Origin: Escherichia phage St11Ph5
Length of the DNA: 64,000 nt
Sequence record: NC_070873.1
Strand: one strand, 5' to 3'
Made by a program: the position numbers and the translations under genes. How positions within the stretch are numbered: position 1 is the stretch's first letter; each line of letters begins with the position of its first letter. Of the stretch, positions 3,492-64,000 are shown in pieces. The notes beneath the pieces were generated by a model. It made no database searches and was not told the origin of the DNA. It worked only from the letters and a program-made list of their open reading frames with translations.

Positions 3492-4667
3492 ATGAACCAA
3501 TTTCCTCAGCACACACTTAGTGATGAACAACTCATGCGTGAGTATGACCGTATTCAGGCGCAGGCGTTTCTCGGACGCAGTGCTGCGTTCTTTGGTTCAT
3601 TGCTGTGTAGTCTTAAGTTCTCATGGAAACGTGAGGATTGCCCCACTGCATGTACTGATGGGATAGAACTCCATTTCAACCCAGACTTCTTTATCTGGAT
3701 GTGTCCAGATGCAAGAGAAACAGTATTAATGCATGAACTATGGCATGTAGCATATCTACATGACATCCGTCGTGGAAGCCGTGACCCGGAAATCTGGAAC
3801 CAGGCTTGTGACCACTTCATTAACCTTCAGTTAGAAGAAGATGGTTACAAGTTCACTGGCATTGACAAAGGCATTTGCAAAGACCCTCAATATAAAGGAT
3901 GGGTCGAAGAAGACATCTACGATGACCTGATGAAGAACCCTCAGAAAAGGCAGAAGCCCTCGGGGGGTGCTGGAGCAGGTCTTGCTGGCGACATGAAATC
4001 CCCCACTTCGGGGCAGTCCCAGGGTGCTGTTGTCAACAACGTAGTACGTGCAATGCAAAGCCAGAAAATGGCTGGTGGACAGATGCCCGGTAAGGGTGCT
4101 GGTCGTATGGAAGAGGTTATTACCCAATTCCTTAAACCAGTGGTTCCCTGGCAGGAAGTTCTGATGAACTTCTTTACCGACATTGATGACACACACTATA
4201 CGTGGGCCAGACCTAATCGTCGTTACACTGATATCTATCTACCTTCCCTGGAAGATGATGAAGGACGTTTACGTCACTTAGCCTACTTTGAGGATGTGTC
4301 TGGTTCTATTAGTAGTGCTGACTCTCTGCGTTTTAACTCAGAGGTTGCCTACGTTAAGAGCCAATTCAATCCTAAGAAGATGTCCTTAATTACCTTCGAC
4401 GATATTATCCAGGAAGAGATAGACATCACTGAAGAAGATACTTTTGAAGAGATTAAGATTACAGGTCGTGGTGGTACAAGCCTTGTGCCTGTACGAGATT
4501 GGATTATTAAGAATAAACCAACCGCTGCAATCATATTCTCCGATATGTATGTTCGCCCAATGGAAGAATTGCCATTTGATATCCCTATCATCTGGTGTGT
4601 TCTGAATAATCCTAATGCTACCGTACCTTTTGGGGAGGTAGTTCATATCCCTAAAGGAATGAAATAA
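3492..4667 (+). CDS. VWA-like partner protein with N-terminal HExxH motif (CobT-like)
   Basis: 391 aa directly downstream of AAA ATPase; LMHELWHV motif near N-terminus, Gly-rich linker; assignment by resemblance to MoxR-VWA pairs. Confidence 0.55.
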   Translation: MNQFPQHTLSDEQLMREYDRIQAQAFLGRSAAFFGSLLCSLKFSWKREDCPTACTDGIELHFNPDFFIWMCPDARETVLMHELWHVAYLHDIRRGSRDPEIWNQACDHFINLQLEEDGYKFTGIDKGICKDPQYKGWVEEDIYDDLMKNPQKRQKPSGGAGAGLAGDMKSPTSGQSQGAVVNNVVRAMQSQKMAGGQMPGKGAGRMEEVITQFLKPVVPWQEVLMNFFTDIDDTHYTWARPNRRYTDIYLPSLEDDEGRLRHLAYFEDVSGSISSADSLRFNSEVAYVKSQFNPKKMSLITFDDIIQEEIDITEEDTFEEIKITGRGGTSLVPVRDWIIKNKPTAAIIFSDMYVRPMEELPFDIPIIWCVLNNPNATVPFGEVVHIPKGMK

Positions 4668-28660: not shown

Positions 28661-31600
28661 TTAGTTAGTTAGGTTGAGCCATGGGTTCAGGGTATGGGCA
28701 CGTAAGCCTTGTCCTAAACCGAAGGAGTAACCGAGATTACCCTGTGCAGCAATGCTAAAGATGTTGTCCTGAATAGGAAGACCGACGTTACCAAACATGG
28801 TAGGAGTTGGAGCCAGCATAGCCATAGCAGCATGTACTGGGTTATTACGAATCATGGACACTGCAACTTTTGCAGAACGAATCTTAAAGTTGTAGAACCA
28901 CATTAAACCAACACTTTCCATATATCCACGGAAGCGTCCTGGTAAACGGTCATAGTTAATGAACTCTTCCGTTACACGTCCTAGTGCTTCTTCACGAGTC
29001 TTGCCTTTACGCTGGGTCAGTTCATCATAGATGATTGCTTTAGCGATAAAGTCAGAGTACTCAACTGTCTTCTGGATACCCTGGAAGAGGGCAGTATCCT
29101 TAGTGATAAGTGCATAACGCCCTGCGTTACGTACAGACTTAGGCAGCTTATCAGCCAGCTTATCCATGTATTCGTGAATCTTACCTTCAGTAATCAGGAT
29201 GTCATCACGCCCAATACCAGCATCTGCAATTGAAGAGAACTCACCAGCTTCTAACAGAGGCCAGATACTCAAACGTTTATGGCTATCCGTGATGGACTGA
29301 ATCTCAGCCTTAAGTTTACGAATCTGGTTCGGGTTGGTAGCTGCACGTAATTCTGCTTCTGCATCTACCTGGCGCAGACGAGATTTTAGGTACTGATTAA
29401 TCTCAGCAGTTTTCTGTGGAATGCTCTTAGCAATGTTCTTAACAGGTACACCACGAGCAACCATCTGGTAAAGGTTAGCCAGGAAGTTAACAGCAGGTAC
29501 AACTACTGACTTAACTACAATCAGAGTCTTAGCTTCTTTAACTAAGTTCTGAACCAGATTCTCACCACCCATTACATACTTATAAGCACGGTTGCCAAAT
29601 ACACCCAGCATAGCTTTCTTGAAGGTATCCAGTGTTTCTGGGGACCAACGAGAATTACCAGACCAGGCATCACCAACAGAAGCTGCACGATAACCAAGAG
29701 CATCATTGAGCATGTCACGACGTACCCATAACTCACCCGGACCAAACAGACTTTCTGCTTTCTGACGAGTTTCACTGTTCATCAGCTTAAGTGCATCAGC
29801 AGTTACTGGGTCCAGTTTAGAACCAAGAAGGTTAACGTACTGGGACTTATTAGAGGCAGACATCTTAATATCGTTCTCATACATGCTATGCAGATTCTCA
29901 ATAAGCATGTCGTTGAAACGCTGAGCCTTAGCCTCTTCCACCTGACGTCCACGCCATACACCAATCGCACGAGCAAGATGGTTCTCACCTTCGATGTGCT
30001 TCAGCATATTAGGGTCAATGGATTGCTCGTAAGCAACCACATTACCATTGGCATCATATACAGGCAGCAATGGTTCATTACCACGTTCACCGCGAGCCAG
30101 TGCTTTAGTAACACGGTCCACGGAAGGCTTGTCAGTGATACGACCAGCTACCATGGTTCCCATAGTAAAGCCTGTACCAAGGTCTACGCCACCAGCAGTA
30201 TTGCGAACGTTCTGCAGGATACCCTGTGAGAATGGAGCCTGTGCCTGTACTGGTGCAAAGTAGTAGCTACGTGCTGGCCCACGATTAGCAGAGCTACCCT
30301 GATAAGTGCCCAGTCGTACATAGGATTTCTCAATCAAATCAGCAAACTGACTATCTTCAGCAACAATCAGGTTAACACCCTGTTTAGTCTCACCAGGGAT
30401 ATATCCTTTGTACTGGTTCAAGGTTGCACGACTATCAGACTTAGCTTTAGCCATTTCGTCTTTACGCTGACCAACCAGGTAAGAAGTAGCAAAGTCCATA
30501 CCTTCAATTTCTGTCTGAGCCAGTGAAGATAACATCTCACGGTCAGTCTTATTCATTGCTTCCAGTGCATACAGAGTAATCAGTTTATCCAGCTGAGCTA
30601 CATCTACAACAGAACGTGTAGTCTTACGTTCGCCCAGCAATCGAGAAATTGCAGTAGCATTACGCAGCAGGTTATTACCAACAGTACCATTAATCATGTA
30701 CTGAGCCAGTTGCTTAGATTTACGGTTAATCAAAGACCAGTTACGTCCGGCTTGTTTCTGCAAATCTGCTTCCAGTTTATTAACCTCACGGTCAACAATC
30801 TTCTGGTCAGTTAGCAAGTCACGGATTTCAGCCAAAGACATAGTGTCACGCAGAACAGCTAAGTCAGTTTTACCCATACCGGTATGCATTGCTTTCCACT
30901 CCTCATTAGTCAGCTTACGGCTGAACTTAGATGCGATAGTGGTAGGTAAATGTTCACGGAACTGTTGACGGTCAGCCTGTACCTGTGCACGTACTGCTTT
31001 AATCAAATCATACACAGAAGCATTGCTCTTAGTACGTCCGATTATGTCATTAACCAGGTCATGGAAAGGTTGCCATACTTTACCCTGGTTCATTGCAGCC
31101 ATAACACCTTCAGCTACGATTGAACCATTCTTCTCTGTAGCAATAGCAGCTATCAGTTGTGCAGCATGAGCAGCACCTTTGACCAATGGGTTCTTGGTAT
31201 TAGCCGCAACTTCACGAGCACCTTCCAAAGCACGGGTAGACAGCACATCAATAGAATCCACCAGATACTGGTTAGCACGGTCGATAGCATTACCAGTAGG
31301 AGTAGCAACGGAATCATAGAAGGATTCTGCATTAAGACTGGTCTGCATGATTGTCTGAGCCAGTGCATCCATACCTTCCTGTACGTTAGTGGCTTTAGTA
31401 TCACCTGCAACACGAGCATTCAGACTAGCCATTGCAGCAGTACCGATGTTAGTCAGCATTGCGTCAACAGTATTGCCAGATTTCTTATCTGCTTTCATAA
31501 CAGGAATATCAGCCAGCACCTTACGTACTTCTTCACTTACCATTGCCAGACCAACAAAGGTAGGCAGTAAGGAAGAACGACCATGTGCATCAAACTCAAT

Positions 31601-34600
31601 GTTGTTAGCACCCATGATGGTATCGAACTTCTGCTGTGCATAGTAACGGTCAGCAGGGTTAGTACTATCTGGGTCAGCCATGAATACTTCGACGGTCAGG
31701 TTCTTAGTAACATGTGTGTAGTATTCCTGTGCACGAGCCAGGGCAGCTGGGTTAATAGCAGCCTCAGTAGCTAGTGCAGCAACAATGTTAGTGAAGAGAC
31801 GCTGTTCCTGCATATTCATGGTGAAGCCATGGGCCTGAACATCACGGGTTACTTTGGTTGCATTCACTACTGCATCAGAGAACTTACCTTTGCGAATTAC
31901 TTGCTGTACTGGTTCTGAACCAATGTAGTTAGTAATTAGCTTATCGAAGGTTTTCCCTAATTCTTCCAGACGGGTATTGTTACCATATGCTTTGTTATGG
32001 AACAGGGTAGTGTCTTTGGCTACAGTAGCAGTAGGAGCTTGTCCACGCATTACTACAGCAGAGTTAAACAGTAAGCCAGAGAACATATCATCTGCATTAG
32101 CCGGAGCTTTCTTACGTCCGAATACCAGACGCTTGATTGCTTCATATACAGCCTGAACCATCGTTTTAAGTGCAGTGGTTTTCTTCTGCTTATTAATAAG
32201 TTCACGGTTAGTTAATCCCCAAGCCATGTACTCATTCAGTGCAGCAGCTTTAGCCATTGCTGGTTCAATGAAGCCATTAGACAAGTGACCATTAATGGTA
32301 TTCAGTGCATCAGCATATGCTTCACGTACTGCCGGAGATTCATCATAAACATCCAGAGCACGGAACTGGTTCATCAGGTCTTCAATATTCTGGACAGCTT
32401 CATTAGGAGTACCTTCGTAGTGAGCCAGTACAGATTCAAAAGTAGAAGCATGTACCAATTCATGAACCAGAGTCTCTAATGAAGGAGTAACTAAGTAGAT
32501 GGTCTTATCTTCAAAGTTAGTCCAGCCATATGCATTACCTGCTTCAGCAGCCTCAATATCTTCTGGTGCTGGGCGAGTAATATTCTTCTCAATAGCATAG
32601 GCATCCAGTTGAGAAGGTGTACCATAAACAACCTTATAGTCTTTAGCAGCAAGGGATTTCTGTATTTCTTTCAATACTTCTTGCTGTTCAGGAGACATCT
32701 CTTTAGCCAATTTAGTAATAGCAGTATTAGACAGCAGACGTACACCAGATTTCAGTACACGACCAACTTGTTCCATTGCTGGTACTTCTTTCACTGGTTC
32801 TGCTTTAGCAGCACGTACTGCATCACGACGCTTGTTTAATTCAGCATCAAACAGTTCGTTCAGCTTAGCTACTTGCTGGTCTACAGTTAAACCTTCCAGA
32901 GAGATTTTACCGTTGTTCACATAAGGAGCACCAACAGCAGCCATCTGGTCAACAGTGACCTGTACCTGGTCCATTACCTTGTGACGAATATCTACACCCA
33001 GGGCAATGTTACGCAGATTACGCTCAATTAATGCAATACCAGAATCTTTAATCATAGAAATTTTATAATCTCTATCACCATCTACTCTGGTAATCTGAGC
33101 ACGTTGATCAAAGTCTAAAGCAGACTTCGCAATAGCATCTATTGCTGCATCGGACAGCTTATTTAAATCAACATTCTTAGCAAACTTAGAGAAAGACTCA
33201 TAAACATTCTTGATAGGGTTACCCTGCCAGGAAGTATATACAGCCTCGTTAGCTTTACGGCTTGCATCAGTAATGTCATTGATACCAATGTTCATACCAT
33301 CAAAGATTTTCAGGGTATTCTTTGGAGCACCTTTCATAGTAGAAAGAGTCTGCATCATCATGCCATCACCAGTACCGATGGTCATAAATGGAATACCTGC
33401 TACACCTGCCTGCGAAGGAGCATAGATGCTCATTGGCACACGCATACGGTCATCTAAGTTAGTAGCCAGTACTTGGTTAGCAACATCAGTATTTTCACTA
33501 CCTGCAATGTAGAAAGTCTGGGAACCAGTCTCAATCATTGGAGCCAGTGGTGCTAAGCTATTCTGAATTTCATTCAGTTCTTTCTGTGTTAAGAAATCAC
33601 CTTTCTTCCATGTTGGGTCTTTTTCTTTTTCTGCCAGTTTAGCCTGTACTGCCTGTTGGAACATATCCTGCAATACCAGAGATTGAATCTGGGTAGCCTT
33701 CTGTAAGTTCTCCGTAGATTGCATCAACCCTTCACCAACAGTGAATCGGATACTTTGTCTCATAGGCTCAACAAAGAAGTGCAGCATATTCTCTTGTAAG
33801 TTCTTAAGAGCATCCCCGGATACGGTAAACTCCCGGGGATCTAACTTACCAGTCAGAACACCATCTACTTCTTTAATGAATAACTTACCTTTACGCTTAG
33901 CTGGAATATTTCCAGTCAATGCTTTCATAGAAGTAAGGAAGGTATCCAGCATAGCCTGAGCATCGGCTTCAGATGCAGCCTCCTTACCAAACATCGCCAT
34001 AGCTGGGGAAATGTTAGGGTCAACAGCACGGGCTTTTAGAACGTCGCTTAAGCGTTCATAGATGGTATCAGTAATTGCACTTACCATCTTGCCAGCAATA
34101 CCACGTGCGCCAGAACCATAGATGGTAATGGTTAGTGGGTTTTTAGCGATACCACGTTTCAAGTCCAGAGTACCGTCTTCCTTAAGATTGAAGTCTTTAA
34201 TGAACAAATCCATTAGCTTCTGGAGATGGTCCATCTGGTTTATAACAGGAATATTTTTACTATAAGCATTGCGTAATTCATTTAGATAGAATTGCAGACT
34301 ATTAGTAGATGCTTCATACAGGTCAACACTGTCTTCCTGAGTATGATGCTCATTCATGGTCTTACCGGCTTTACCGAAGAACAAACCACCTTTGGCAGTA
34401 TTCTTAATCCAGTTTGGAGTGAACTTACCACCGGTCATTAATACCATTGCGTTGATTGGACCGTTGGTTACACCATCGGCTTCAACGTACAGTGGGGTAT
34501 TAAAGTTGGCACGGTCATCACTGTTAAGATAACGGGCATATTCCATAAGAGCCATAAGAGCTACAAAGGATTTATCATTACCAAGAGATGTTCTCAGAAT

Positions 34601-37600
34601 ATCCACTGCATCAGTAGGTAAGTATCCAGACTTATCAAACTCAACCATCATATCTACAGCAGGTTTCAGCTTACCTTCCAGAGCTTTGGTAAGTTCTTCT
34701 GACATAGTTTCACGAGTCATTTTATGAACTTTGATACCTAATGCCTGAGCCAGTCCAAGCTGGAAGCCTGAGAAGTCTTCATTGTTCTGATTCGATAAAT
34801 CCAGAGTAGCTTTAGTAGGTAAGATAGCCTCACGAACCAACTTAGCTGATTGAGGATTATATTTACCTAACATCTGCATACGACCAACACGGGTCATATT
34901 GTAAGCATAGTGAATAGGCACAGTGGAAATGTCTTCACTCTGTGCTCTCACCTGTTCAATAACAGAGAACAATTGGTTGTAAGAATCCTCTACTGAACGG
35001 TTTTTACCTTCCAGAGATTTAGCATGGTTCTTATTAAGTAAATCCTTATCCAGAGTACCAGCACCCATCAATTCGAGGATACGGTCTTTACCTAAAGCCT
35101 CATAGAACTGAACCATTGGGGTATGCACAAAGAACTCTGTAGCCTGCTCTGCTTTAAGGGCAGCTTTCTGTTCCGGAGTATTACGGACAGCAGGGTTACG
35201 TAACTGAGTATGAGCCACGGGAGGAATGTCATCACCGAAATACAGTTTCTCTACTGGTTCTACGAGGACAGCTTCCTCGATAGCAGTAGGGAATTTGTTA
35301 ATAGCGTCGGTATCATCCAGCTTCTCAATGGTATACAGACCAATAGTCTTATTGGATTCTGGGTCAATTTCAGACACATCCAGCATGGACTCTTTAACTT
35401 CACCCATTTCAATAAGGGAAGATAGAATCTCTGTAGCCATTGCCATCGGGATACCTTTGGTATAACCCAGTGGTGCATCAGCATTACGATTAAGTCCCCA
35501 GTAAGATTCAATCTTTTGAGCCAGTGAGTTAGTAGCTTCTACTAAGGTTTGTGCATTCTCAAATTCTGCGAGGATACCTTCTGGTAACAAGGAAGCATTT
35601 ACACCAGTAATTGCAGCCACATCCTGCATGTCTTTAATAGCAGCATTCTGTGTAGCAGTAAGTCGCCATTGCAGACCAGCAAGTACAGCAGTCTCTAACA
35701 ATTGGTCATTGAACTTAAAGGTGTCTCCGTCTTTCTCTACGATATTAAGTAACTTACCACCTACCCAACGGTTAGCTTCAGTACCTTCTGCAAAACGTTT
35801 ACCAACGTTCTTGTTAGCAAGGAATTTAGTCAGACGGTCAGACAAAGTAGTCTTCAGAGTTTCACCAAACTCAAATAAGTCCTGGTAACGCTTAATCACA
35901 TCACTTGTGAGAGCGTTATTTTCTTTTTGAGTAAATGCTTCAAAACGAGCAGCAGAAGACAGTGCTTTATTAACATCAGTTAAAGGAGATTCAGAACCAA
36001 TGGTACGGGACTTAGGTTCTTCTGGCAGACTAAATGCTTTAAGGAACTGGTTCGGTGTCTTTTCATTGTTATAGACAGGGAACACTGCTTCCATTCCCGA
36101 TAGAGGTTTACCACCAACAGTATAGTCTGCTTTCAGTTGAGCCAGTGATACTTCTTCTTTCTCAACGTTATTGGTATTAAGCCCAGATGTATCTACACCA
36201 ATCTGAATCAGTGCATTGTTTGCTTCTACGAATGATTGAACAGTATTGAATTGTTCAGCAGTTAGCTTCTGATTATCAAACAATTGCAGAGATACGAACG
36301 GTTGCTCACTACCTTTATAGAAAGTAGAACGTACAGCACCAGTATCCAGAGACATGTCACGATAACCATCATGACCAAATACGTCAGACAGACTGATATG
36401 GTCGCCATTGGAACCAACAACAGTACCATCAGCGAATAGCCATGGACTATCTCTACGGTCACCATACTTATTAAGAGTATCTTGTGAAATAGTATTCTCT
36501 TTCACATAAGAATCTCTTTCAGATTCAGTAGGCTGTTCAACGATATCCTGTTTTTCAGACTGGTTCTCAGGTTCTTTTACGGTTTGTGGTTTAGACTCTT
36601 TAATAGTAGGTTCTGTTTTAACAGCTTCACTAACAGAGGGTTTAGTCTGTACAGTAGGGGTAACTGGTTCCTGTTTTGTAACAGGAGCTTCATCAACCTG
36701 ATTCACTGGTTCATTAGTCTGTTGGGATTGAGCAGCATCAAGATTGCCCTGACGGAACTCTTTAACTACCTGGGCAGCAGGCTTGTTCAGACGTGAATCC
36801 AATGGGGTAACTTTCACATGAGAAACATTAAGCTCCGGGTAAGCCGTAGCAAGTGCGTTAGCAATATCAGCTACGGTCTTGGCTTCCAGTCCTACTTGCT
36901 GGGCAAACTTAACAGACTTGGTATCATACGGATTGACACCGAGGCCAGTACGACTACGTACCCATTCACGCGAGGGAGTAAGAGCCTGATAATGGACAGA
37001 CTTATTCTTATCCGCATTCCCAGAAATCAGATGCTCATTCAACGCTCCGACCTTATTCTGCATGTGCTGGGCGAACTTCATAAAGTCGTCGAGATAAGCG
37101 GAAGCCAAATCGAAGTTACCAGAGTTGTACGCAGAACGAATGCGTTTAGCATGTTGCAACGCAGAGTACTGGCCTTCATTAGAACGAGACTCGTCGGTTT
37201 TAATCTGTTTACTAACAATGTCTTGAGGACGTAAGCCTAGTTCTTCTGCTTTAGCATCAAATTCTCGTGCTCCTTGTAATAGAGCAGCAGCAGATTGCAG
37301 GGCAGCACGCTGACGATTCCCCAGTGTAATCTTACCTTCACTTGCATGTTTCAGAACCATGTTCACTGAATCTGCATCCAGCACTTCTGGAGACATATCA
37401 GCAGCCATAGCAATGTTGTTTGCCTGAGCTTGGTTAGCTTCTTCAGTAGCTTTCAGTTTACCTGCTTCAGCCTGTTCCTGAATCATAGAATGGATGGCAC
37501 GGAATGCACGGAGTACCTTCGGTGTATTCTGAACATTAGCCATCAGGCCAGAGAATTGGTCAACAATATTAGCAGCAGGAGAACCCTGTTCCAGATTAGC

Positions 37601-39466
37601 CAGAGCACCAGGGTCACGGTTAATGAAGCTATCCATAGACATGATGTTGTCATACATCTGGATTGCAGCTTCCATTTGAACGTTAGGGTCTTCGGCAGTA
37701 TTAACCAGGTCAGCCATCTTCTGAATAGCTTCAACACGGTTAGTGGAACCAGAAACAGCTTCACGGATTGCCGGGCTAGCTTGTTCCAGTTCTACTGGGT
37801 CAAACTTCATTGCCTGAGTTAAGTCAGCAGCATACTGAGTAGCAGCAGCTTTCTCTTCAGGAGAAATATCCATTGCATCTACTGCTTCCTGAACAGTTGC
37901 TTGAGCCTGTTCTGCCTGAGCAGTAGCTTCTTGTGCAGCAGCATTAACTGTAGCGTCTGATACAGGGGATGCTTGTTCATTTCGCTTAGCAACTTCTTCG
38001 CCACGCTGAACCAGGATGTTAGTAATAGGAGAAGCAGCTTTTGCTAATGCATTACCAGCCAGAGAAGCAGCAGCCATGGTAGTACGTACAGCAGGACCAA
38101 CGGCAGCACCAGCAGCTTTAACAGTTGCACCAGGAGCTTGAGCAACTCCAGCAGAACCGAAGCCATACAATGCACCAAGCCCGGTTTGTTCACCAACACC
38201 TTTAAGCAAATCACGCTTAGCATCTACATTACCTTGAATTGCCTTGTTCTGTGCAAGCTGACTTGTACCAGACTGGATACCTTCTTCTACAGTCTCACGC
38301 AGCATGTTAGAACCAGCACCAGCCAGTGAACCTACCTTAAGTGGATTAAGTTCAAACTTGGATACCAGTGGACCAGTAAGAGCAGCAACCGGAGCAGTTA
38401 AGCCAGCAGCAGTAATACCTGTTTCAGATGCAGTTTGACGACGTGCTTCTTCAGGAGATAAACCATCTTTAATATGCTGTTGGTATACAGGGGATTTAGC
38501 AGCCAGTTCACTAAACGGCATTTCCATAATTTCATTAGCAGTTTGTTGGTATGCACCACCAGCTTCCATACCACCAATTGCTATAGCAGGTGCAGCAACA
38601 CGACCAGTAGCCAATGCAACCTGTGCAGGACGTGAACCTAATTCAGCAGCTAAGGTAATACCCTTAACAGCTTTATCCCCACCTACCATTACTTTACCGA
38701 GTGCGGATACACCACGAATCAATGGACCACCGGTAAAGAGAGAACCAACACCCTCAGCCAGACCATCAGTAGCAGCCATGCCATTGGACAAAGTGTTAAC
38801 AACAGAATCGTAAGCATCACGTCCAATGCGAGACAGGGAAGCAACGAGTTCGCTTTCTCCTTTAGCAATATCCTGCTTATAGAGTTTCTCATTCTCCTGT
38901 GCAGATATTACGTTCTGGTTCTGTACTACATTACGACGAGCATTCAATGCATCAGACTGTAGGTTATGTACACCTTTATTCAACCAGTCAAGACCGGAAG
39001 CAATGGATGCCCCGGCATTATCATTGACCAAGCCTGTGCCAAGAGCAGCAATGCCCCCAAGGGTATTAGCAACACCAAGACCAACACCAGAAAGGGTATC
39101 ACCAAGTGCTTCACCATATGTACGACTCTTAGTTAAATCACGACGAACAGCATTAGCTGCATTGACACGAGCATTGAGAATGTCCATTCCTTGCTCATTG
39201 CCGTACTTGTTTATGATTTCAAGAGGAGAGGCGTTAGTAAAATCTGCCTGAATAGAACCTGGGTCAAATGCACCAGCACCTAAGTTACCAGTACGACCTG
39301 CCTGCAATTGGTAGGCATTCTGAGGAGTTAATTGGAAAGGGTTTTGCCCTTGTTCAGCTTGTTTCCGAGAGGTTGCAGTAGAGACATCGACTTGCTTAGC
39401 AGTAGTGATGCTGTCTGCGAAACCTGCCAGACGGTCAAATGTTGACATAGCATGATTCCTGTTCAA
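28661..39466 (-). CDS. virion-encapsidated RNA polymerase (N4 vRNAP-like giant protein)
   Basis: Single 3601-aa ORF; size and genome position match N4 gp50; central segment ITIYGSGARG compatible with single-subunit RNAP motif B. Confidence 0.8.
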   Translation of the reverse strand: MNRNHAMSTFDRLAGFADSITTAKQVDVSTATSRKQAEQGQNPFQLTPQNAYQLQAGRTGNLGAGAFDPGSIQADFTNASPLEIINKYGNEQGMDILNARVNAANAVRRDLTKSRTYGEALGDTLSGVGLGVANTLGGIAALGTGLVNDNAGASIASGLDWLNKGVHNLQSDALNARRNVVQNQNVISAQENEKLYKQDIAKGESELVASLSRIGRDAYDSVVNTLSNGMAATDGLAEGVGSLFTGGPLIRGVSALGKVMVGGDKAVKGITLAAELGSRPAQVALATGRVAAPAIAIGGMEAGGAYQQTANEIMEMPFSELAAKSPVYQQHIKDGLSPEEARRQTASETGITAAGLTAPVAALTGPLVSKFELNPLKVGSLAGAGSNMLRETVEEGIQSGTSQLAQNKAIQGNVDAKRDLLKGVGEQTGLGALYGFGSAGVAQAPGATVKAAGAAVGPAVRTTMAAASLAGNALAKAASPITNILVQRGEEVAKRNEQASPVSDATVNAAAQEATAQAEQAQATVQEAVDAMDISPEEKAAATQYAADLTQAMKFDPVELEQASPAIREAVSGSTNRVEAIQKMADLVNTAEDPNVQMEAAIQMYDNIMSMDSFINRDPGALANLEQGSPAANIVDQFSGLMANVQNTPKVLRAFRAIHSMIQEQAEAGKLKATEEANQAQANNIAMAADMSPEVLDADSVNMVLKHASEGKITLGNRQRAALQSAAALLQGAREFDAKAEELGLRPQDIVSKQIKTDESRSNEGQYSALQHAKRIRSAYNSGNFDLASAYLDDFMKFAQHMQNKVGALNEHLISGNADKNKSVHYQALTPSREWVRSRTGLGVNPYDTKSVKFAQQVGLEAKTVADIANALATAYPELNVSHVKVTPLDSRLNKPAAQVVKEFRQGNLDAAQSQQTNEPVNQVDEAPVTKQEPVTPTVQTKPSVSEAVKTEPTIKESKPQTVKEPENQSEKQDIVEQPTESERDSYVKENTISQDTLNKYGDRRDSPWLFADGTVVGSNGDHISLSDVFGHDGYRDMSLDTGAVRSTFYKGSEQPFVSLQLFDNQKLTAEQFNTVQSFVEANNALIQIGVDTSGLNTNNVEKEEVSLAQLKADYTVGGKPLSGMEAVFPVYNNEKTPNQFLKAFSLPEEPKSRTIGSESPLTDVNKALSSAARFEAFTQKENNALTSDVIKRYQDLFEFGETLKTTLSDRLTKFLANKNVGKRFAEGTEANRWVGGKLLNIVEKDGDTFKFNDQLLETAVLAGLQWRLTATQNAAIKDMQDVAAITGVNASLLPEGILAEFENAQTLVEATNSLAQKIESYWGLNRNADAPLGYTKGIPMAMATEILSSLIEMGEVKESMLDVSEIDPESNKTIGLYTIEKLDDTDAINKFPTAIEEAVLVEPVEKLYFGDDIPPVAHTQLRNPAVRNTPEQKAALKAEQATEFFVHTPMVQFYEALGKDRILELMGAGTLDKDLLNKNHAKSLEGKNRSVEDSYNQLFSVIEQVRAQSEDISTVPIHYAYNMTRVGRMQMLGKYNPQSAKLVREAILPTKATLDLSNQNNEDFSGFQLGLAQALGIKVHKMTRETMSEELTKALEGKLKPAVDMMVEFDKSGYLPTDAVDILRTSLGNDKSFVALMALMEYARYLNSDDRANFNTPLYVEADGVTNGPINAMVLMTGGKFTPNWIKNTAKGGLFFGKAGKTMNEHHTQEDSVDLYEASTNSLQFYLNELRNAYSKNIPVINQMDHLQKLMDLFIKDFNLKEDGTLDLKRGIAKNPLTITIYGSGARGIAGKMVSAITDTIYERLSDVLKARAVDPNISPAMAMFGKEAASEADAQAMLDTFLTSMKALTGNIPAKRKGKLFIKEVDGVLTGKLDPREFTVSGDALKNLQENMLHFFVEPMRQSIRFTVGEGLMQSTENLQKATQIQSLVLQDMFQQAVQAKLAEKEKDPTWKKGDFLTQKELNEIQNSLAPLAPMIETGSQTFYIAGSENTDVANQVLATNLDDRMRVPMSIYAPSQAGVAGIPFMTIGTGDGMMMQTLSTMKGAPKNTLKIFDGMNIGINDITDASRKANEAVYTSWQGNPIKNVYESFSKFAKNVDLNKLSDAAIDAIAKSALDFDQRAQITRVDGDRDYKISMIKDSGIALIERNLRNIALGVDIRHKVMDQVQVTVDQMAAVGAPYVNNGKISLEGLTVDQQVAKLNELFDAELNKRRDAVRAAKAEPVKEVPAMEQVGRVLKSGVRLLSNTAITKLAKEMSPEQQEVLKEIQKSLAAKDYKVVYGTPSQLDAYAIEKNITRPAPEDIEAAEAGNAYGWTNFEDKTIYLVTPSLETLVHELVHASTFESVLAHYEGTPNEAVQNIEDLMNQFRALDVYDESPAVREAYADALNTINGHLSNGFIEPAMAKAAALNEYMAWGLTNRELINKQKKTTALKTMVQAVYEAIKRLVFGRKKAPANADDMFSGLLFNSAVVMRGQAPTATVAKDTTLFHNKAYGNNTRLEELGKTFDKLITNYIGSEPVQQVIRKGKFSDAVVNATKVTRDVQAHGFTMNMQEQRLFTNIVAALATEAAINPAALARAQEYYTHVTKNLTVEVFMADPDSTNPADRYYAQQKFDTIMGANNIEFDAHGRSSLLPTFVGLAMVSEEVRKVLADIPVMKADKKSGNTVDAMLTNIGTAAMASLNARVAGDTKATNVQEGMDALAQTIMQTSLNAESFYDSVATPTGNAIDRANQYLVDSIDVLSTRALEGAREVAANTKNPLVKGAAHAAQLIAAIATEKNGSIVAEGVMAAMNQGKVWQPFHDLVNDIIGRTKSNASVYDLIKAVRAQVQADRQQFREHLPTTIASKFSRKLTNEEWKAMHTGMGKTDLAVLRDTMSLAEIRDLLTDQKIVDREVNKLEADLQKQAGRNWSLINRKSKQLAQYMINGTVGNNLLRNATAISRLLGERKTTRSVVDVAQLDKLITLYALEAMNKTDREMLSSLAQTEIEGMDFATSYLVGQRKDEMAKAKSDSRATLNQYKGYIPGETKQGVNLIVAEDSQFADLIEKSYVRLGTYQGSSANRGPARSYYFAPVQAQAPFSQGILQNVRNTAGGVDLGTGFTMGTMVAGRITDKPSVDRVTKALARGERGNEPLLPVYDANGNVVAYEQSIDPNMLKHIEGENHLARAIGVWRGRQVEEAKAQRFNDMLIENLHSMYENDIKMSASNKSQYVNLLGSKLDPVTADALKLMNSETRQKAESLFGPGELWVRRDMLNDALGYRAASVGDAWSGNSRWSPETLDTFKKAMLGVFGNRAYKYVMGGENLVQNLVKEAKTLIVVKSVVVPAVNFLANLYQMVARGVPVKNIAKSIPQKTAEINQYLKSRLRQVDAEAELRAATNPNQIRKLKAEIQSITDSHKRLSIWPLLEAGEFSSIADAGIGRDDILITEGKIHEYMDKLADKLPKSVRNAGRYALITKDTALFQGIQKTVEYSDFIAKAIIYDELTQRKGKTREEALGRVTEEFINYDRLPGRFRGYMESVGLMWFYNFKIRSAKVAVSMIRNNPVHAAMAMLAPTPTMFGNVGLPIQDNIFSIAAQGNLGYSFGLGQGLRAHTLNPWLNLTN

Positions 39467-60746: not shown

Positions 60747-61407
60747 GTACTAGTTTAGAACCAGCAACCTCTTTAGTAGGTACTCCACTATTGATTGCAT
60801 TAATTTGCTGTTCAGCTAATGCAGCAAGCGTTGCCTTGAGGTCAGTTAACCCAGAGTTCTCTCTCAAGTCCAGATTGATATTCGTTACCTGGTCTTTCGG
60901 TTTAGCTAAGTGGGTAAGGATAGAGTTAGCTGCATCACATCTTACCTTCTCACTTGCTGCTGTAGTCATCAGTTCAACCTGAACATTAATTGCCTTCTGA
61001 TAATTGTCCTGGTTTACAATCCACACTGGAACCAAACTTTGTTCCATGATGAGGTTAACTAGCTTACCTCTGTGATAAGCAGATACATAAGCACTAATAT
61101 CTTTCTCACTGGTTCCTCGTGCAACAAGTTCTGCTTGTCGGTTAGGGAATGTTTTGAAGTAGGCTTCCTTATTGGAGTAGCCCATGTGTTTATAAGTCAC
61201 ATACTGAACTGCATTCATGTAGTCCTGTGTCTTAAACTTACCCTCCTTCATTACACCAGAGTAGGAGATAAAGTTTTCACGGAAGGACTCAGCAACCAGT
61301 TGGTCTTGGGTAATGTTGTTAATTGTATCTACCAACTCCTGGGTCACACTGTTTTTGAAGTTAGCAGGTAAGGCATTAATAATCTGCTGCTTAGTTAGTT
61401 CACTCAT
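60718..61407 (-). CDS. putative terminase small subunit
   Basis: 229-aa ORF directly upstream of terminase large subunit, overlapping its start; by position only. Confidence 0.35.
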   Translation of the reverse strand: MSELTKQQIINALPANFKNSVTQELVDTINNITQDQLVAESFRENFISYSGVMKEGKFKTQDYMNAVQYVTYKHMGYSNKEAYFKTFPNRQAELVARGTSEKDISAYVSAYHRGKLVNLIMEQSLVPVWIVNQDNYQKAINVQVELMTTAASEKVRCDAANSILTHLAKPKDQVTNINLDLRENSGLTDLKATLAALAEQQINAINSGVPTKEVAGSKLVRADEDITDV

Positions 61408-61578
61408 ACTTATCTCGCTACAAAGTTATGTCTATTAAAGAAGATTCTTTTCTTGGGGTGAGTTACCCCTTGAAGAAACGATACCATACAGTTACACTTT
61501 AGTCATGATATAGAAAAAGTTCATGATACTAAATAGTATGTAATGTTCCGATGATCCTATTCCCAAAAGGAGTAACCT
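61408..61578. promoter_or_regulatory. divergent AT-rich intergenic region
   Basis: 170-bp AT-rich gap between divergent genes; repeated TCATGATA motifs; hairpin GGGGT-GAGTT-ACCCC. Confidence 0.3.
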
Positions 61579-61869
61579 TTGAGAATCTATATGAGAGTCC
61601 ACGACTCTAAAGATGAATACAAGGAGCTAGACCACACCAAAGCTGGTATTCTTTCAGATGACATTATCATCACACATGATGAAGACACTTACCATGAATT
61701 AGCTGGGATGATGCTTTTAGAGAATCGACCTGGCATTAAAATCTTAGAACCAAGAGAAACTTACTCTTTAGAAAAACGCCCATCAGCTCTTGTGTTCTTC
61801 ACAAAATTACCTCATAGTGTCTCCGTCAGGCGAAGCAAAGACAGTGTTCGGATGACGGTGACGATGTGA
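61579..61869 (+). CDS. small protein, paralog family member 1
   Basis: 96 aa; TTG start with AAGGAG RBS (alternative ATG 61591); shares D/E-x-H-E-hydrophobic-x-G core with four downstream ORFs. Confidence 0.4.
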   Translation: MRIYMRVHDSKDEYKELDHTKAGILSDDIIITHDEDTYHELAGMMLLENRPGIKILEPRETYSLEKRPSALVFFTKLPHSVSVRRSKDSVRMTVTM

Positions 61870-62069
61870 TTAGTCATGCCGCCTAGTAGACAGTGGCGGT
61901 ACTCGTAAAGAGTTAATAACTTCTACAGTCAGGGTTGCCCGGCTCCTTTCCTACCTAGTAGGCTAACGATACACATGTATCTAGGGTGATGAACTGACCC
62001 GTGATAGAAAACGGTAAGGGGTAGAGTCGAGAGGCTCTACCTCATTTCTTTTTCAGGAGGTATGCAAAT
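61870..62069 (+). promoter_or_regulatory. structured intergenic region with repeated CCTAGTAG and terminator-like hairpin
   Basis: CCTAGTAG at about 61882 and 61954; hairpins CCGCC...GGCGG and CCTAC-CTA-GTAGG; stem GGTAGAG/CTCTACC with T-tract just before RBS of next gene. Confidence 0.3.
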
Positions 62070-62468
62070 ATGAGCATCTACTGTTTTGATATTGATATTA
62101 CCGGAGTACTACTTATACAGGAACCTTATTACCTTGGGGAACCAGAAGTAGTAAGTAAGTTCATTACCCCGTGGCAAACAGTATTCTTACCTGACTGCGA
62201 AGAGTCCCATGAGGTTATTGGTTCTCTTTTCCTATCCAACCTGCAACTCAATACTAAGATACTTACTGAACCAAAGGTGTATGATCTTTCCTTTTATAGC
62301 GACTTTCAAATGCTCTTCCCTGGTGTACGTTTCTATAAGATAGATGGTTGGGAATTGATAGCTGACCATAATGTTTTTAATAAAACACTTTCCATTTACT
62401 TCAGACCTATTCCTAAAGGAAGGAAAATCAATCATGAAATTCATAATGACCATCCCCAGTTTTGCTGA
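62070..62468 (+). CDS. small protein, paralog family member 2
   Basis: 132 aa; AGGAGG RBS; motif VFLPDCEESHEVIGSLFL. Confidence 0.45.
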   Translation: MSIYCFDIDITGVLLIQEPYYLGEPEVVSKFITPWQTVFLPDCEESHEVIGSLFLSNLQLNTKILTEPKVYDLSFYSDFQMLFPGVRFYKIDGWELIADHNVFNKTLSIYFRPIPKGRKINHEIHNDHPQFC

Positions 62469-62748
62469 AAGGGAATCTATGTACACAACTGACTTCACTT
62501 TAGAAGAAGTCATGAACAGCAATCCTCAGCAAGTAATCCTGGTTCCTACCTTAGAAGATTATCATGAGGTAAGGGGTCAACTCTTCTTAGCAGGTAATGA
62601 CCGTAAGGTTGTATGTATTATTCCTCCTTCTGTCTATACCAACTATAACGCTAATGACCCTATCCCTTACATGATGGTATCTGATGACTATCAGTGGGAG
62701 AGTCGTTATGTGAAGGGTGAATACCGTTACTACTATACAAGGAAGTAA
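62434..62748 (+). CDS. small protein, paralog family member 3
   Basis: ORF 62371..62748; preferred ATG 62434 after AAGGAAGG; motif VILVPTLEDYHEVRGQLFL; overlaps member 2 by about 35 nt. Confidence 0.45.
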   Translation: MKFIMTIPSFAERESMYTTDFTLEEVMNSNPQQVILVPTLEDYHEVRGQLFLAGNDRKVVCIIPPSVYTNYNANDPIPYMMVSDDYQWESRYVKGEYRYYYTRK

Positions 62749-62751
62749 GTT

Positions 62752-63075
62752 ATGCGCTTCTACTCATTAGTTGCACTAAGTACAAGCTGCTATCTCAGTA
62801 CTGTAACTAAACAGGATTGTTTAAATGGTAAACTGGATGGAACTACTATCCTGTATGAACCAAATGAAGAAGCAGATGAGTTCATAGGTACATGCCTAAT
62901 GTTAGGTATACCCATCACTTTCATTAAGATAGATACATCAGTTGAGATATCTGAATTTGCAAGGGTGTACATCCTATCAACTGCTGAACCTATGGTAGTA
63001 ACTACCCTAACAGGTAGACTTATTACCCTCTACCCATCTACCTCATATTTATCTAGCGACGAGTGTGCCCTATGA
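62752..63075 (+). CDS. small protein, paralog family member 4
   Basis: 107 aa; motif TILYEPNEEADEFIGTCLML. Confidence 0.45.
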   Translation: MRFYSLVALSTSCYLSTVTKQDCLNGKLDGTTILYEPNEEADEFIGTCLMLGIPITFIKIDTSVEISEFARVYILSTAEPMVVTTLTGRLITLYPSTSYLSSDECAL

Positions 63076-63413
63076 ATAGAGTACTGTACCTTCATCAATA
63101 TACAGATGATGTCTCTGTTTACTCCGAGAATGTCAATAAAGCTATTGATTGGTTACTGCCACAAGACTGTCATATGCTTATGCTATCTGGCGAGTTAGCA
63201 GATAGTACCCGTGGTTCCATCCTTCTACTTAACAGTCTAGCTAAGTTAACCATCCTTAACCCAGGTGAATCCATAGAGATACCTGCAGGTGAATCTGCAT
63301 TTTTGTTCTTTGAACCAAGGATAGAAGAAGGGTTTGTTGGGCTTACTATAGATAGCAGACCTAATAAAGATTTTAAAAGAGTACGTATCATCACCCCAAG
63401 GGTATCTCTATGA
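63072..63413 (+). CDS. small protein, paralog family member 5
   Basis: ORF 63063..63413; ATG 63072 overlaps upstream stop (ATGA); motif MLMLSGELADSTRGSILL. Confidence 0.4.
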   Translation: MNRVLYLHQYTDDVSVYSENVNKAIDWLLPQDCHMLMLSGELADSTRGSILLLNSLAKLTILNPGESIEIPAGESAFLFFEPRIEEGFVGLTIDSRPNKDFKRVRIITPRVSL

Positions 63414-63739
63414 AACTAAACACATCCCCCTATCCAGTACAGCTAGAAGTAGTATTTGACCAGGATACCTTCATTAAAAAGTACAAGAAACTTAAAGGGT
63501 ATGAGCCAGACTTGGACGATTGTAAGGGGTATACTTCTTACTCTGGAAATCGAGTATTGATCGGTATCTTTAGGGAACCTTTACATACACTCATCCACGA
63601 ACTCAATCATTTCTGTTTATGGGTGTTTGACTACATAGGTATGCCTATAAACTCTGCCAATAGTGAAGCATATTGCTATTACTATGACCATATCTTCTCC
63701 CAGATTCCTTCCTCCTATTTAACTGCTTATAAGGGCTAA
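63410..63739 (+). CDS. small HExxH-motif protein (possible minimal zinc metallopeptidase-like)
   Basis: 109 aa; LIHELNHF motif; ATGA overlap with upstream gene. Confidence 0.4.
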   Translation: MKLNTSPYPVQLEVVFDQDTFIKKYKKLKGYEPDLDDCKGYTSYSGNRVLIGIFREPLHTLIHELNHFCLWVFDYIGMPINSANSEAYCYYYDHIFSQIPSSYLTAYKG

Positions 63740-63740
63740 C

Positions 63741-63875
63741 ATGTGGTATGTAACAGTCAAGGGCTTACCTGAACCAGTAATAGTACACAGCCTAGCTTTC
63801 GTAGAAGTTGGTGGACCATTGCTTGTAAACGGTAAGCTGTATGAGGTTTTAGGTATTAAACGCTATGACGAATAA
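63741..63875 (+). CDS. hypothetical small protein
   Basis: 44-aa ORF starting 2 nt after upstream stop; followed by hairpin GGGGTA...TACCCC. Confidence 0.25.
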   Translation: MWYVTVKGLPEPVIVHSLAFVEVGGPLLVNGKLYEVLGIKRYDE

Positions 63876-64000
63876 GGGGTAGATAGCTACCCCAACCATC
63901 TTTCATATTAATACCTCAAAGCTATCTGCTTATAGAGATAGTGCCTATAATATTTTTGCATGTCAAAATTGTGATAGCTATGTACAGCCATAGTGGTGTG

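Follow-up and report, generated by a model that had tools for sequence, protein, structure and literature searches.

Right-end gene cluster of St11Ph5

The window, i.e. the whole 64,000-nt stretch of Escherichia phage St11Ph5 DNA that was analysed (NC_070873.1), carries a small gene on the + strand at positions 63410-63739. The frame appears in the open reading frame list with an ATG start, and its 109-aa product, which is 100% identical to St11Ph5_00089, contains the motif LIHELNHF at residues 61-68, exactly as the sequence-only reading had described it. The start codon at 63410 is supported because homology begins at residue 1. The protein has a pI of 6.0, no basic tail and an N-terminus that is not hydrophobic. 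It is a zincin-like member of the HkcC family (phrog_1365), matching this profile with an E-value of 2.5e-30 over residues 1-102 (profile positions 6-115 of 127).

The source phage, an N4-like coliphage, belongs to the genus Gamaleyavirus. Positions 61400-64000 of the window align to the final 2.6 kb of the phage vB_EcoP_ShWW44, and the gene therefore belongs to the right-end group of short + strand open reading frames that comes after the leftward terminase genes. From 62070 to 63875 the genes are closely spaced, with overlaps or gaps of 1-3 nt between them. The gene directly upstream, p5 (63072-63413, + strand, phrog_12606), is unrelated to the HExxH protein, and the final gene of the cluster, a 44-aa open reading frame (63741-63875, + strand, phrog_19797), begins 1 nt past the stop codon of the 109-aa gene. 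No Pfam domain was found in the window neighbours of the gene, no helix-turn-helix (HTH) partner was detected adjoining it, and no tRNA or Rfam family was found between 61300 and 64000. The right-end region is patchy among the Gamaleyaviruses; 57 records were matched, 12 of them covering at least 80%.

A palindromic hairpin, GGGGTAGATAGCTACCCC (63876-63893), lies directly after the last open reading frame, and the transcription unit probably ends there. Its sister, GGGGTGAGTTACCCC, is found at 61455-61469, upstream of the cluster. In the 64 kb, GGGGT..ACCCC is matched at these two places alone (0.3 matches expected), and the pair encloses the entire + strand right-end cluster; none was found in the left 9 kb (early region) of ShWW44. 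The two hairpins may be terminators, promoters or elements related to packaging. A single sigma70-like site is located at 61355-61383. A 200-nt non-coding gap (61870-62069) sets the first small gene apart from the others and may divide the cluster into two units of transcription. A terminator-like hairpin with 11 G+C-rich base pairs, followed by a T-run, is present at 62018-62043 and has no Rfam or tRNA match.

Probable translational coupling

The TGA stop codon of p5 (63411-63413) overlaps the ATG of the 109-aa gene (63410-63412) in an ATGA junction, which is preceded by a Shine-Dalgarno (SD)-like AAGGG at 63398-63402 with a 7-nt spacer. The same 4-nt overlap is annotated in phages Bp4, Uz-1, ECBP1, U1G, ZQ2 and IME11, and it is kept in relatives despite two different upstream genes. 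In addition, a segment inside p5 (63272-63284) and the region 63400-63412, which includes part of the SD sequence and the AUG, form a perfect 12-13-bp inverted repeat. The minimum free energy fold of 63262-63422 includes this long-range stem of 13 bp (-46.3 kcal/mol, z=-3.5; 1 of 200 shuffles was as good). The stem is found with one mismatch in IME11 and more weakly in AN24P2. Where the other upstream gene is present, relatives can instead form a 10-bp stem of unrelated sequence, CUUUUCUUAU paired with the SD segment AUAAGGAAAG (loci L022 and L023, at about 102-111 and 238-247), which could do the same job. The folding predictions, made on few sequences, fit an occluded start site that is opened by ribosomes translating the upstream gene, i.e. 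strict translational coupling. The coupling to p5 that had been proposed from the sequence is thus supported by the conserved overlap and by the predicted stem over the SD and AUG.

Relation to the upstream gene array

The five genes upstream, p1-p5 (61579-63413), are loosely related and have a common motif, (D/E)xxHE(V/L)xGxxxL. Within this array, BLASTP similarity is strong between p2 and p3 (E about 5e-6) and marginal between p1 and p5 (0.008). The five proteins belong to five different PHROGs (phrog_7213, 9160, 11661, 12099 and 12606), all of unknown function.

The sequence-only reading had offered, as a second option, that the 109-aa protein is a degenerate sixth member of this array. The HExxH of such a member would have no function. 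The two kinds of protein are similar in size and share a tightly packed operon, and there is a superficial resemblance between HEL in the one and HEV or HEL in the others. This origin was nevertheless rejected and is now extremely unlikely. Although p2 and p3 find each other readily by BLASTP, none of p1-p5 resembles the HExxH protein in the same comparison (E of 15 or higher). An hhalign comparison of its family profile with the paralog alignment gave a probability of 0.11%, and the PHROG assignments are disjoint. The p5 model, of low confidence (pLDDT 64), has a b-a-b-a order plus five strands as opposed to the b-a-b-b-a-a order of the HExxH protein. Furthermore, the HExxH protein occurs in P22-like, Kuttervirus and phiKMV-like phages that do not have the array.

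The HkcC family and its distribution

A profile search of 1.84 billion cluster representatives (E<=1e-3) identified 642 clusters, nearly all of them stand-alone proteins of 95-150 aa. All of the 136 diverse members compared with PHROGs matched phrog_1365, which is annotated as 'unknown function'. The same profile is matched by HkcC of HK620 and P22 (7.8e-40), Orf-129 of ST64T (6.1e-45) and open reading frames of Possum, Axy21, phiEap-2 and PhiSH19. Relatives in P22-like phages were also identified by tblastn with a consensus-like member. A second homologue search with the family alignment added no annotated relatives, and the DNA pattern TLxHExxH...G...ExxxY, run over viral contigs, gave two matches, both by chance and in other frames.

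The HK620 gene hkcC encodes a 121-aa member of phrog_1365 (NP_112089.1) with the sequence '...VIGVFNGKLSTIAHECAHMAF...ANETYCYLM...'. Published work lists it among the 'ant moron' genes without a known function (PMC2629481; PMC4837284), and the literature on hkcC characterizes it only as 'unknown'. Phage P22 has an intact 121/125-aa hkcC open reading frame whose product is identical to NP_112089.1 (OQ031658, 13849-14226, + strand). This frame lies between sieA and orf59a on the late-operon strand, and it is without annotation in three records (the RefSeq entry NC_002371.2, BK000583 and OQ031658).

A second P22-like copy, represented by Orf-129 of ST64T and gp70 of epsilon34, lies between the lysis genes and terS. 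In the N4-like Pectobacterium phage Possum (Cbunavirus) the homologue is placed between terS and terL, and in the phiKMV-like Achromobacter phage Axy21 it is at the right end, after the lysin gene. The homologue of Enterobacter phage phiEap-2 lies between the DNA polymerase and helicase genes, while that of Kuttervirus PhiSH19 is an unannotated open reading frame in a DNA-metabolism region. Other copies adjoin the RNAP II genes in another N4-like contig and follow a PRTase_3 gene in a large Klebsiella phage. The phage loci have no conserved neighbour in common. The family thus spans lytic phages (N4-like, Kuttervirus, phiKMV-like and Jersey-like) and temperate P22-like phages, and its distribution is the pattern of a mobile accessory gene, often located in late operons or moron slots.

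Some records of homologues deserve comment. The homologue in OR844944.1, 'Enterococcus phage Efm 3-10' (38.5 kb), has the same tblastn identity, E-value and bit score as the copies in Salmonella Kuttervirus (26.5% identity to the 109-aa query and 45.2% to family member P0138), which suggests that this record is mislabelled or contaminated. In the Klebsiella phage records OY978778.1 and OY979416.1, the 100-aa homologue is named 'tail length tape measure protein' in one and 'DNA primase' in the other; these names are probably annotation errors.

Conserved residues

HExxH by itself is weak evidence, because the motif occurs 8 times in the six-frame translation of the window, with three of the occurrences in long open reading frames. 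One is in the 3601-aa virion RNA polymerase (vRNAP; 28661-39466, - strand), which contains TLVHELVHA at about aa 2335 (nt about 32464). A 391-aa putative metallopeptidase with DUF2201_N and VWA regions (3492-4667, + strand; Pfam E 2e-56 and 2e-34) also carries an HExxH.

Conservation was examined in an alignment of 154 diverse homologues, each representing a cluster at 50% identity or less. The HExxH of the 109-aa protein (H63 E64 L65 N66 H67, codons at 63596-63610, + strand) is conserved in this alignment; H63, E64 and H67 are each invariant (154/154). The fourth invariant residue is E86, in the segment E86-A-Y-C-Y90 (codons at 63665-63679, + strand), where Y90 is present in 152 of the 154 sequences. 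The invariance of these four residues across homologues indicates that the HExxH of this protein is more than a chance occurrence. G40 (145/154) and Y8 (138/154) are also conserved, as are G52 and F54 near the third predicted strand. The distance from H67 to E86 is 18 residues in 136 of 147 members, and the family signature is therefore HExxH-x18-ExxxY.

The third zinc ligand that had been sought downstream of the motif thus has a candidate in E86, 18 residues past H67 and in a predicted helix of its own (82-96). A Glu about 18-25 residues downstream on the next helix is the arrangement of the gluzincins, i.e. MA(E). The Asp of the gluzincin ExxxD is replaced here, position +4 being Tyr in 152 of the 154 sequences (ExxxY). 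In contrast, the HExxHxxGxxH and Met-turn of the metzincins are not present; positions 70 (L/I/F) and 73 (F/L) have no conserved Gly or His, and the absence of HxxGxxH rules out the metzincins.

In a set of 20 close relatives (55-97% identity), no substitution occurs at H63, N66 or H67 or within the block S85-E-A-Y-C-Y-Y91, and 19 of the 20 have E64. The exception, P0089 on a 72-kb contig, has HALNH in place of HELNH and has thus lost the presumed catalytic Glu; it may represent an inactive form that occurs naturally, or the change may be an error of sequencing. The longer members of the family carry low-complexity tails only, several of them K/R-rich. The tails of P0167, P0179, P0190, P0237 and P0241 are K/R-rich as in nucleic-acid-binding proteins, some other members have acidic tails, and none of the long members has an added folded domain.

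Predicted fold

An AlphaFold2 model built on the 20-sequence alignment reached a pLDDT of 93.8 and a pTM of 0.85. Its elements are a strand (residues 11-15), a helix (18-29), two strands (40-45 and 48-53), two long helices (57-75 and 82-96) and a short helix (102-105), giving the order b-a-b-b-a(HExxH)-a(E). As defined by Iyer et al. (2017; PMC5512222), the zincin metallopeptidase (MPTase) core comprises a three-stranded sheet and three helices, one of them N-terminal, one carrying HExxH and one carrying the Glu. The predicted elements follow this topology, with the family-conserved HExxH on the predicted helix 57-75, as is characteristic of the zincin superfamily. The model is thus a zincin core without additions, and the structure prediction that the sequence-only reading had called for comes out in its favour.

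H63 and H67 are spaced i, i+4, as are E86 and Y90, and each pair would therefore lie on one helix face. H63, H67 and E86 would be expected to converge on a single site. The third strand (residues 48-53, RVLIGI; codons at 63551-63568, + strand), which directly precedes the active-site helix in the model, is presumably a substrate-binding edge strand.

A Foldseek search of the predicted viral structures in BFVD gave 22 matches at E<=1e-3 (TM 0.64-0.83), nearly all to uncharacterised phage proteins. The named matches, some of them above this threshold, were 'PolyVal Metallopeptidase', 'Metalloprotease', 'SprT-like', BepA-like and 'IrrE'. No solved structure with a significant match was found by Foldseek in the PDB, where SprT-like/Spartan/Wss1 proteins ranked best.

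Comparison with curated metallopeptidase families

No model of Pfam, NCBIfam or PADLOC reached threshold for the 109-aa protein or the 136 members. The 136 diverse members were also scanned against Pfam one by one, and sub-threshold matches were counted. SprT-like led with 19 of 136 members (best E 0.0072), followed by DUF4344, a 'putative metallopeptidase', with 12 of 136. Other zincin families were matched by fewer members (M50B by six, astacin by three, eCIS_core and M78 by two each, and M4 and M10 by one each). The scan also gave many single-member matches to unrelated families. Against PDB sequences, the family profile ranked the BMP-1 and TLL-1 astacin domains highest (E about 0.09), followed by Spartan (0.84); the BMP-1 astacin and Spartan alignments cover the strand before the active-site helix and the HExxH helix. 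An hhalign comparison of the family with the HExxH region of the phage's own vRNAP gave a 72% probability, over only 21 columns, which again fall on this strand and the HExxH helix. That region has no Pfam coverage, and a homologue search with the vRNAP HExxH segment returned two fragments only.

These searches bear on the proposal that the protein is a true SprT/Spartan-type or ImmA/IrrE-type regulated protease, either activated by DNA or cleaving a repressor. SprT-like is the most frequent sub-threshold match, yet the best of the 136 members reaches only E 0.0072 and the 109-aa query itself has no match to PF10263 at E<=1. The 154-sequence alignment has no invariant His after H67, the invariant residue there being Glu, and the absence of a third His argues against SprT/Spartan. 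Similarly, Peptidase_M78 (PF06114), the ImmA/IrrE family, is matched by two of the 136 members with E-values of 0.14 or higher; this and the lack of an HTH repressor or other HTH partner next to the gene in the window argue against ImmA/IrrE. The source phage is strictly lytic, and HK620 keeps hkcC though mnt and ant are present only as remnants. A regulated protease of either type is therefore quite improbable. The sequence-only reading had suggested a minimal zincin-like metallopeptidase or an SprT/ImmA-like fold; its first part stands, with the invariant HExxH and E86 and the zincin topology, whereas membership of SprT or ImmA does not, the Pfam matches being below threshold and the third His missing. 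Membership of the zincin superfamily and a gluzincin-type ligand set are well supported, but membership of any curated family is not.

Proposed function

The 109-aa protein is very probably a zincin-fold metal-dependent hydrolase. More specifically, we regard it as reasonably probable that it is a free-standing, minimal gluzincin-type zinc metallopeptidase and the product of an accessory gene; that it is a peptidase at all we hold to be a fair bet of much the same order.

For metal binding, peptidase activity and the target of the protein we infer the following scheme. The gene, in a variable right-end cluster, would be translated in a manner coupled to the gene upstream. Its product would be a cytoplasmic zinc metallohydrolase of about 100 residues consisting of the zincin core alone; a cytoplasmic location is suggested by the pI of 6.0 and the lack of a hydrophobic N-terminus. 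[quoted passage not shown] Y90, in the place of the Asp of ExxxD, would either position a His ligand or polarise the site, and the substrate would join strand 48-53 as an extra beta-strand. The likeliest activity during infection would be endoproteolytic cleavage of a host or phage protein at a specific site.

The same fold could also serve a protein that is not a protease. It might be a metal-dependent hydrolase acting on another substrate, such as an amidase or a YbeY-like RNase, or it might depend on zinc for a binding or regulatory role. This alternative is unlikely. A full HExxH with a distal Glu, including the general-base Glu, is the signature of peptidases, whereas YbeY has HxxxHxxxxxH without a catalytic Glu. 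The sub-threshold matches, too, are overwhelmingly to peptidase families, and the 109-aa protein, with its slightly acidic pI, lacks the basic tail of some relatives.

For the minimal gluzincin-type peptidase, what is known already is the zincin superfamily, the existence of minimal zincins and the clustering of these proteins as PHROG 1365/hkcC without an assigned function. One more predicted zincin in a phage genome would be unsurprising alone. The family, however, comprises hundreds of sequence clusters spread over phage groups that are not related to one another, and the textbook phages P22 and HK620 are among its carriers. If active, these proteins would form a new family of minimal gluzincin-type proteases, among the smallest metallopeptidases. 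Its presence in P22 and HK620 makes an easy genetic test feasible in those phages, and knowledge of the substrate could point to a host protein whose removal many phages require.

A broader and rather speculative possibility, which we consider unlikely as a whole, is that HkcC proteins are a pan-phage class of stand-alone proteases with about 100 residues, smaller than any other viral metallopeptidase, whose target is an anti-phage defence protein or a conserved factor of the host. If so, HkcC proteins would be a tool of counter-defence or host takeover, and their frequent placement by terminase and lysis genes, in moron slots and at variable ends would reflect an accessory role.

Relation to known systems

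The HExxH domain of N4-type vRNAP was identified as an MPTase by Iyer and colleagues (2017; PMC5512222). This C-terminal HExxH domain and the C-terminal domain of ArdC are PolyVal MPTases, and their core definition is the same as that of the 109-aa protein. A viral protein named 'PolyVal Metallopeptidase' matches the model of the 109-aa protein in Foldseek (E 7.8e-4, TM 0.73), while no Pfam PolyVal model was among the matches listed in the 136-member scan. PolyVal MPTases are embedded in giant multidomain proteins and carry inserts, whereas the 109-aa protein is free-standing and has neither an insert nor a partner domain.

Thermolysin-type gluzincins (MEROPS MA(E)) and the 109-aa protein both have HExxH and a Glu about 20 residues further on, in the next helix. 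The zinc ligands of thermolysin are H142, H146 and E166, for which the counterparts here would be H63, H67 and E86. Thermolysin-type enzymes have ExxxD, exceed 300 aa and possess a C-terminal domain; in contrast, the 109-aa protein has ExxxY, the family is about 100 aa in length and there is no C-terminal domain. The sequence signal is a single member matching Peptidase_M4 with an E-value of 0.01.

SprT-like/Spartan/Wss1 proteins resemble the 109-aa protein in their small zincin core, in addition to being the most frequent sub-threshold Pfam match and the top Foldseek match in the PDB. They use a His as third ligand (H130 in Spartan) and contain zinc-ribbon or DNA-binding modules, whereas the 109-aa protein has no third His and no such modules.

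The minigluzincins and selecase (proabylysin and projannalysin; archaeal metallopeptidases of about 105-110 aa) are about the size of the 109-aa protein, and they illustrate that about 105-110 residues are enough for an active metallopeptidase. The third ligand in minigluzincins is a His, and the lack of a third His in the 109-aa protein argues against membership of this group. Minigluzincins reportedly (Lopez-Pelegrin et al., 2013) consist of a sheet, a backing helix, an active-site helix, a 'glutamate' helix and a short C-terminal helix, in the same order as here.

HkcC of HK620 and its P22 counterpart, Orf-129 of ST64T and gp70 of epsilon34 are homologous to the 109-aa protein, with identities of about 27-30%. 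HkcC also has the length and the HExxH-18-ExxxY arrangement of the 109-aa protein, in the form HECAH...ETYCY. The two differ in setting; hkcC sits in the late operon of temperate P22-like phages, whereas the 109-aa gene is found at the end of a lytic N4-like genome.
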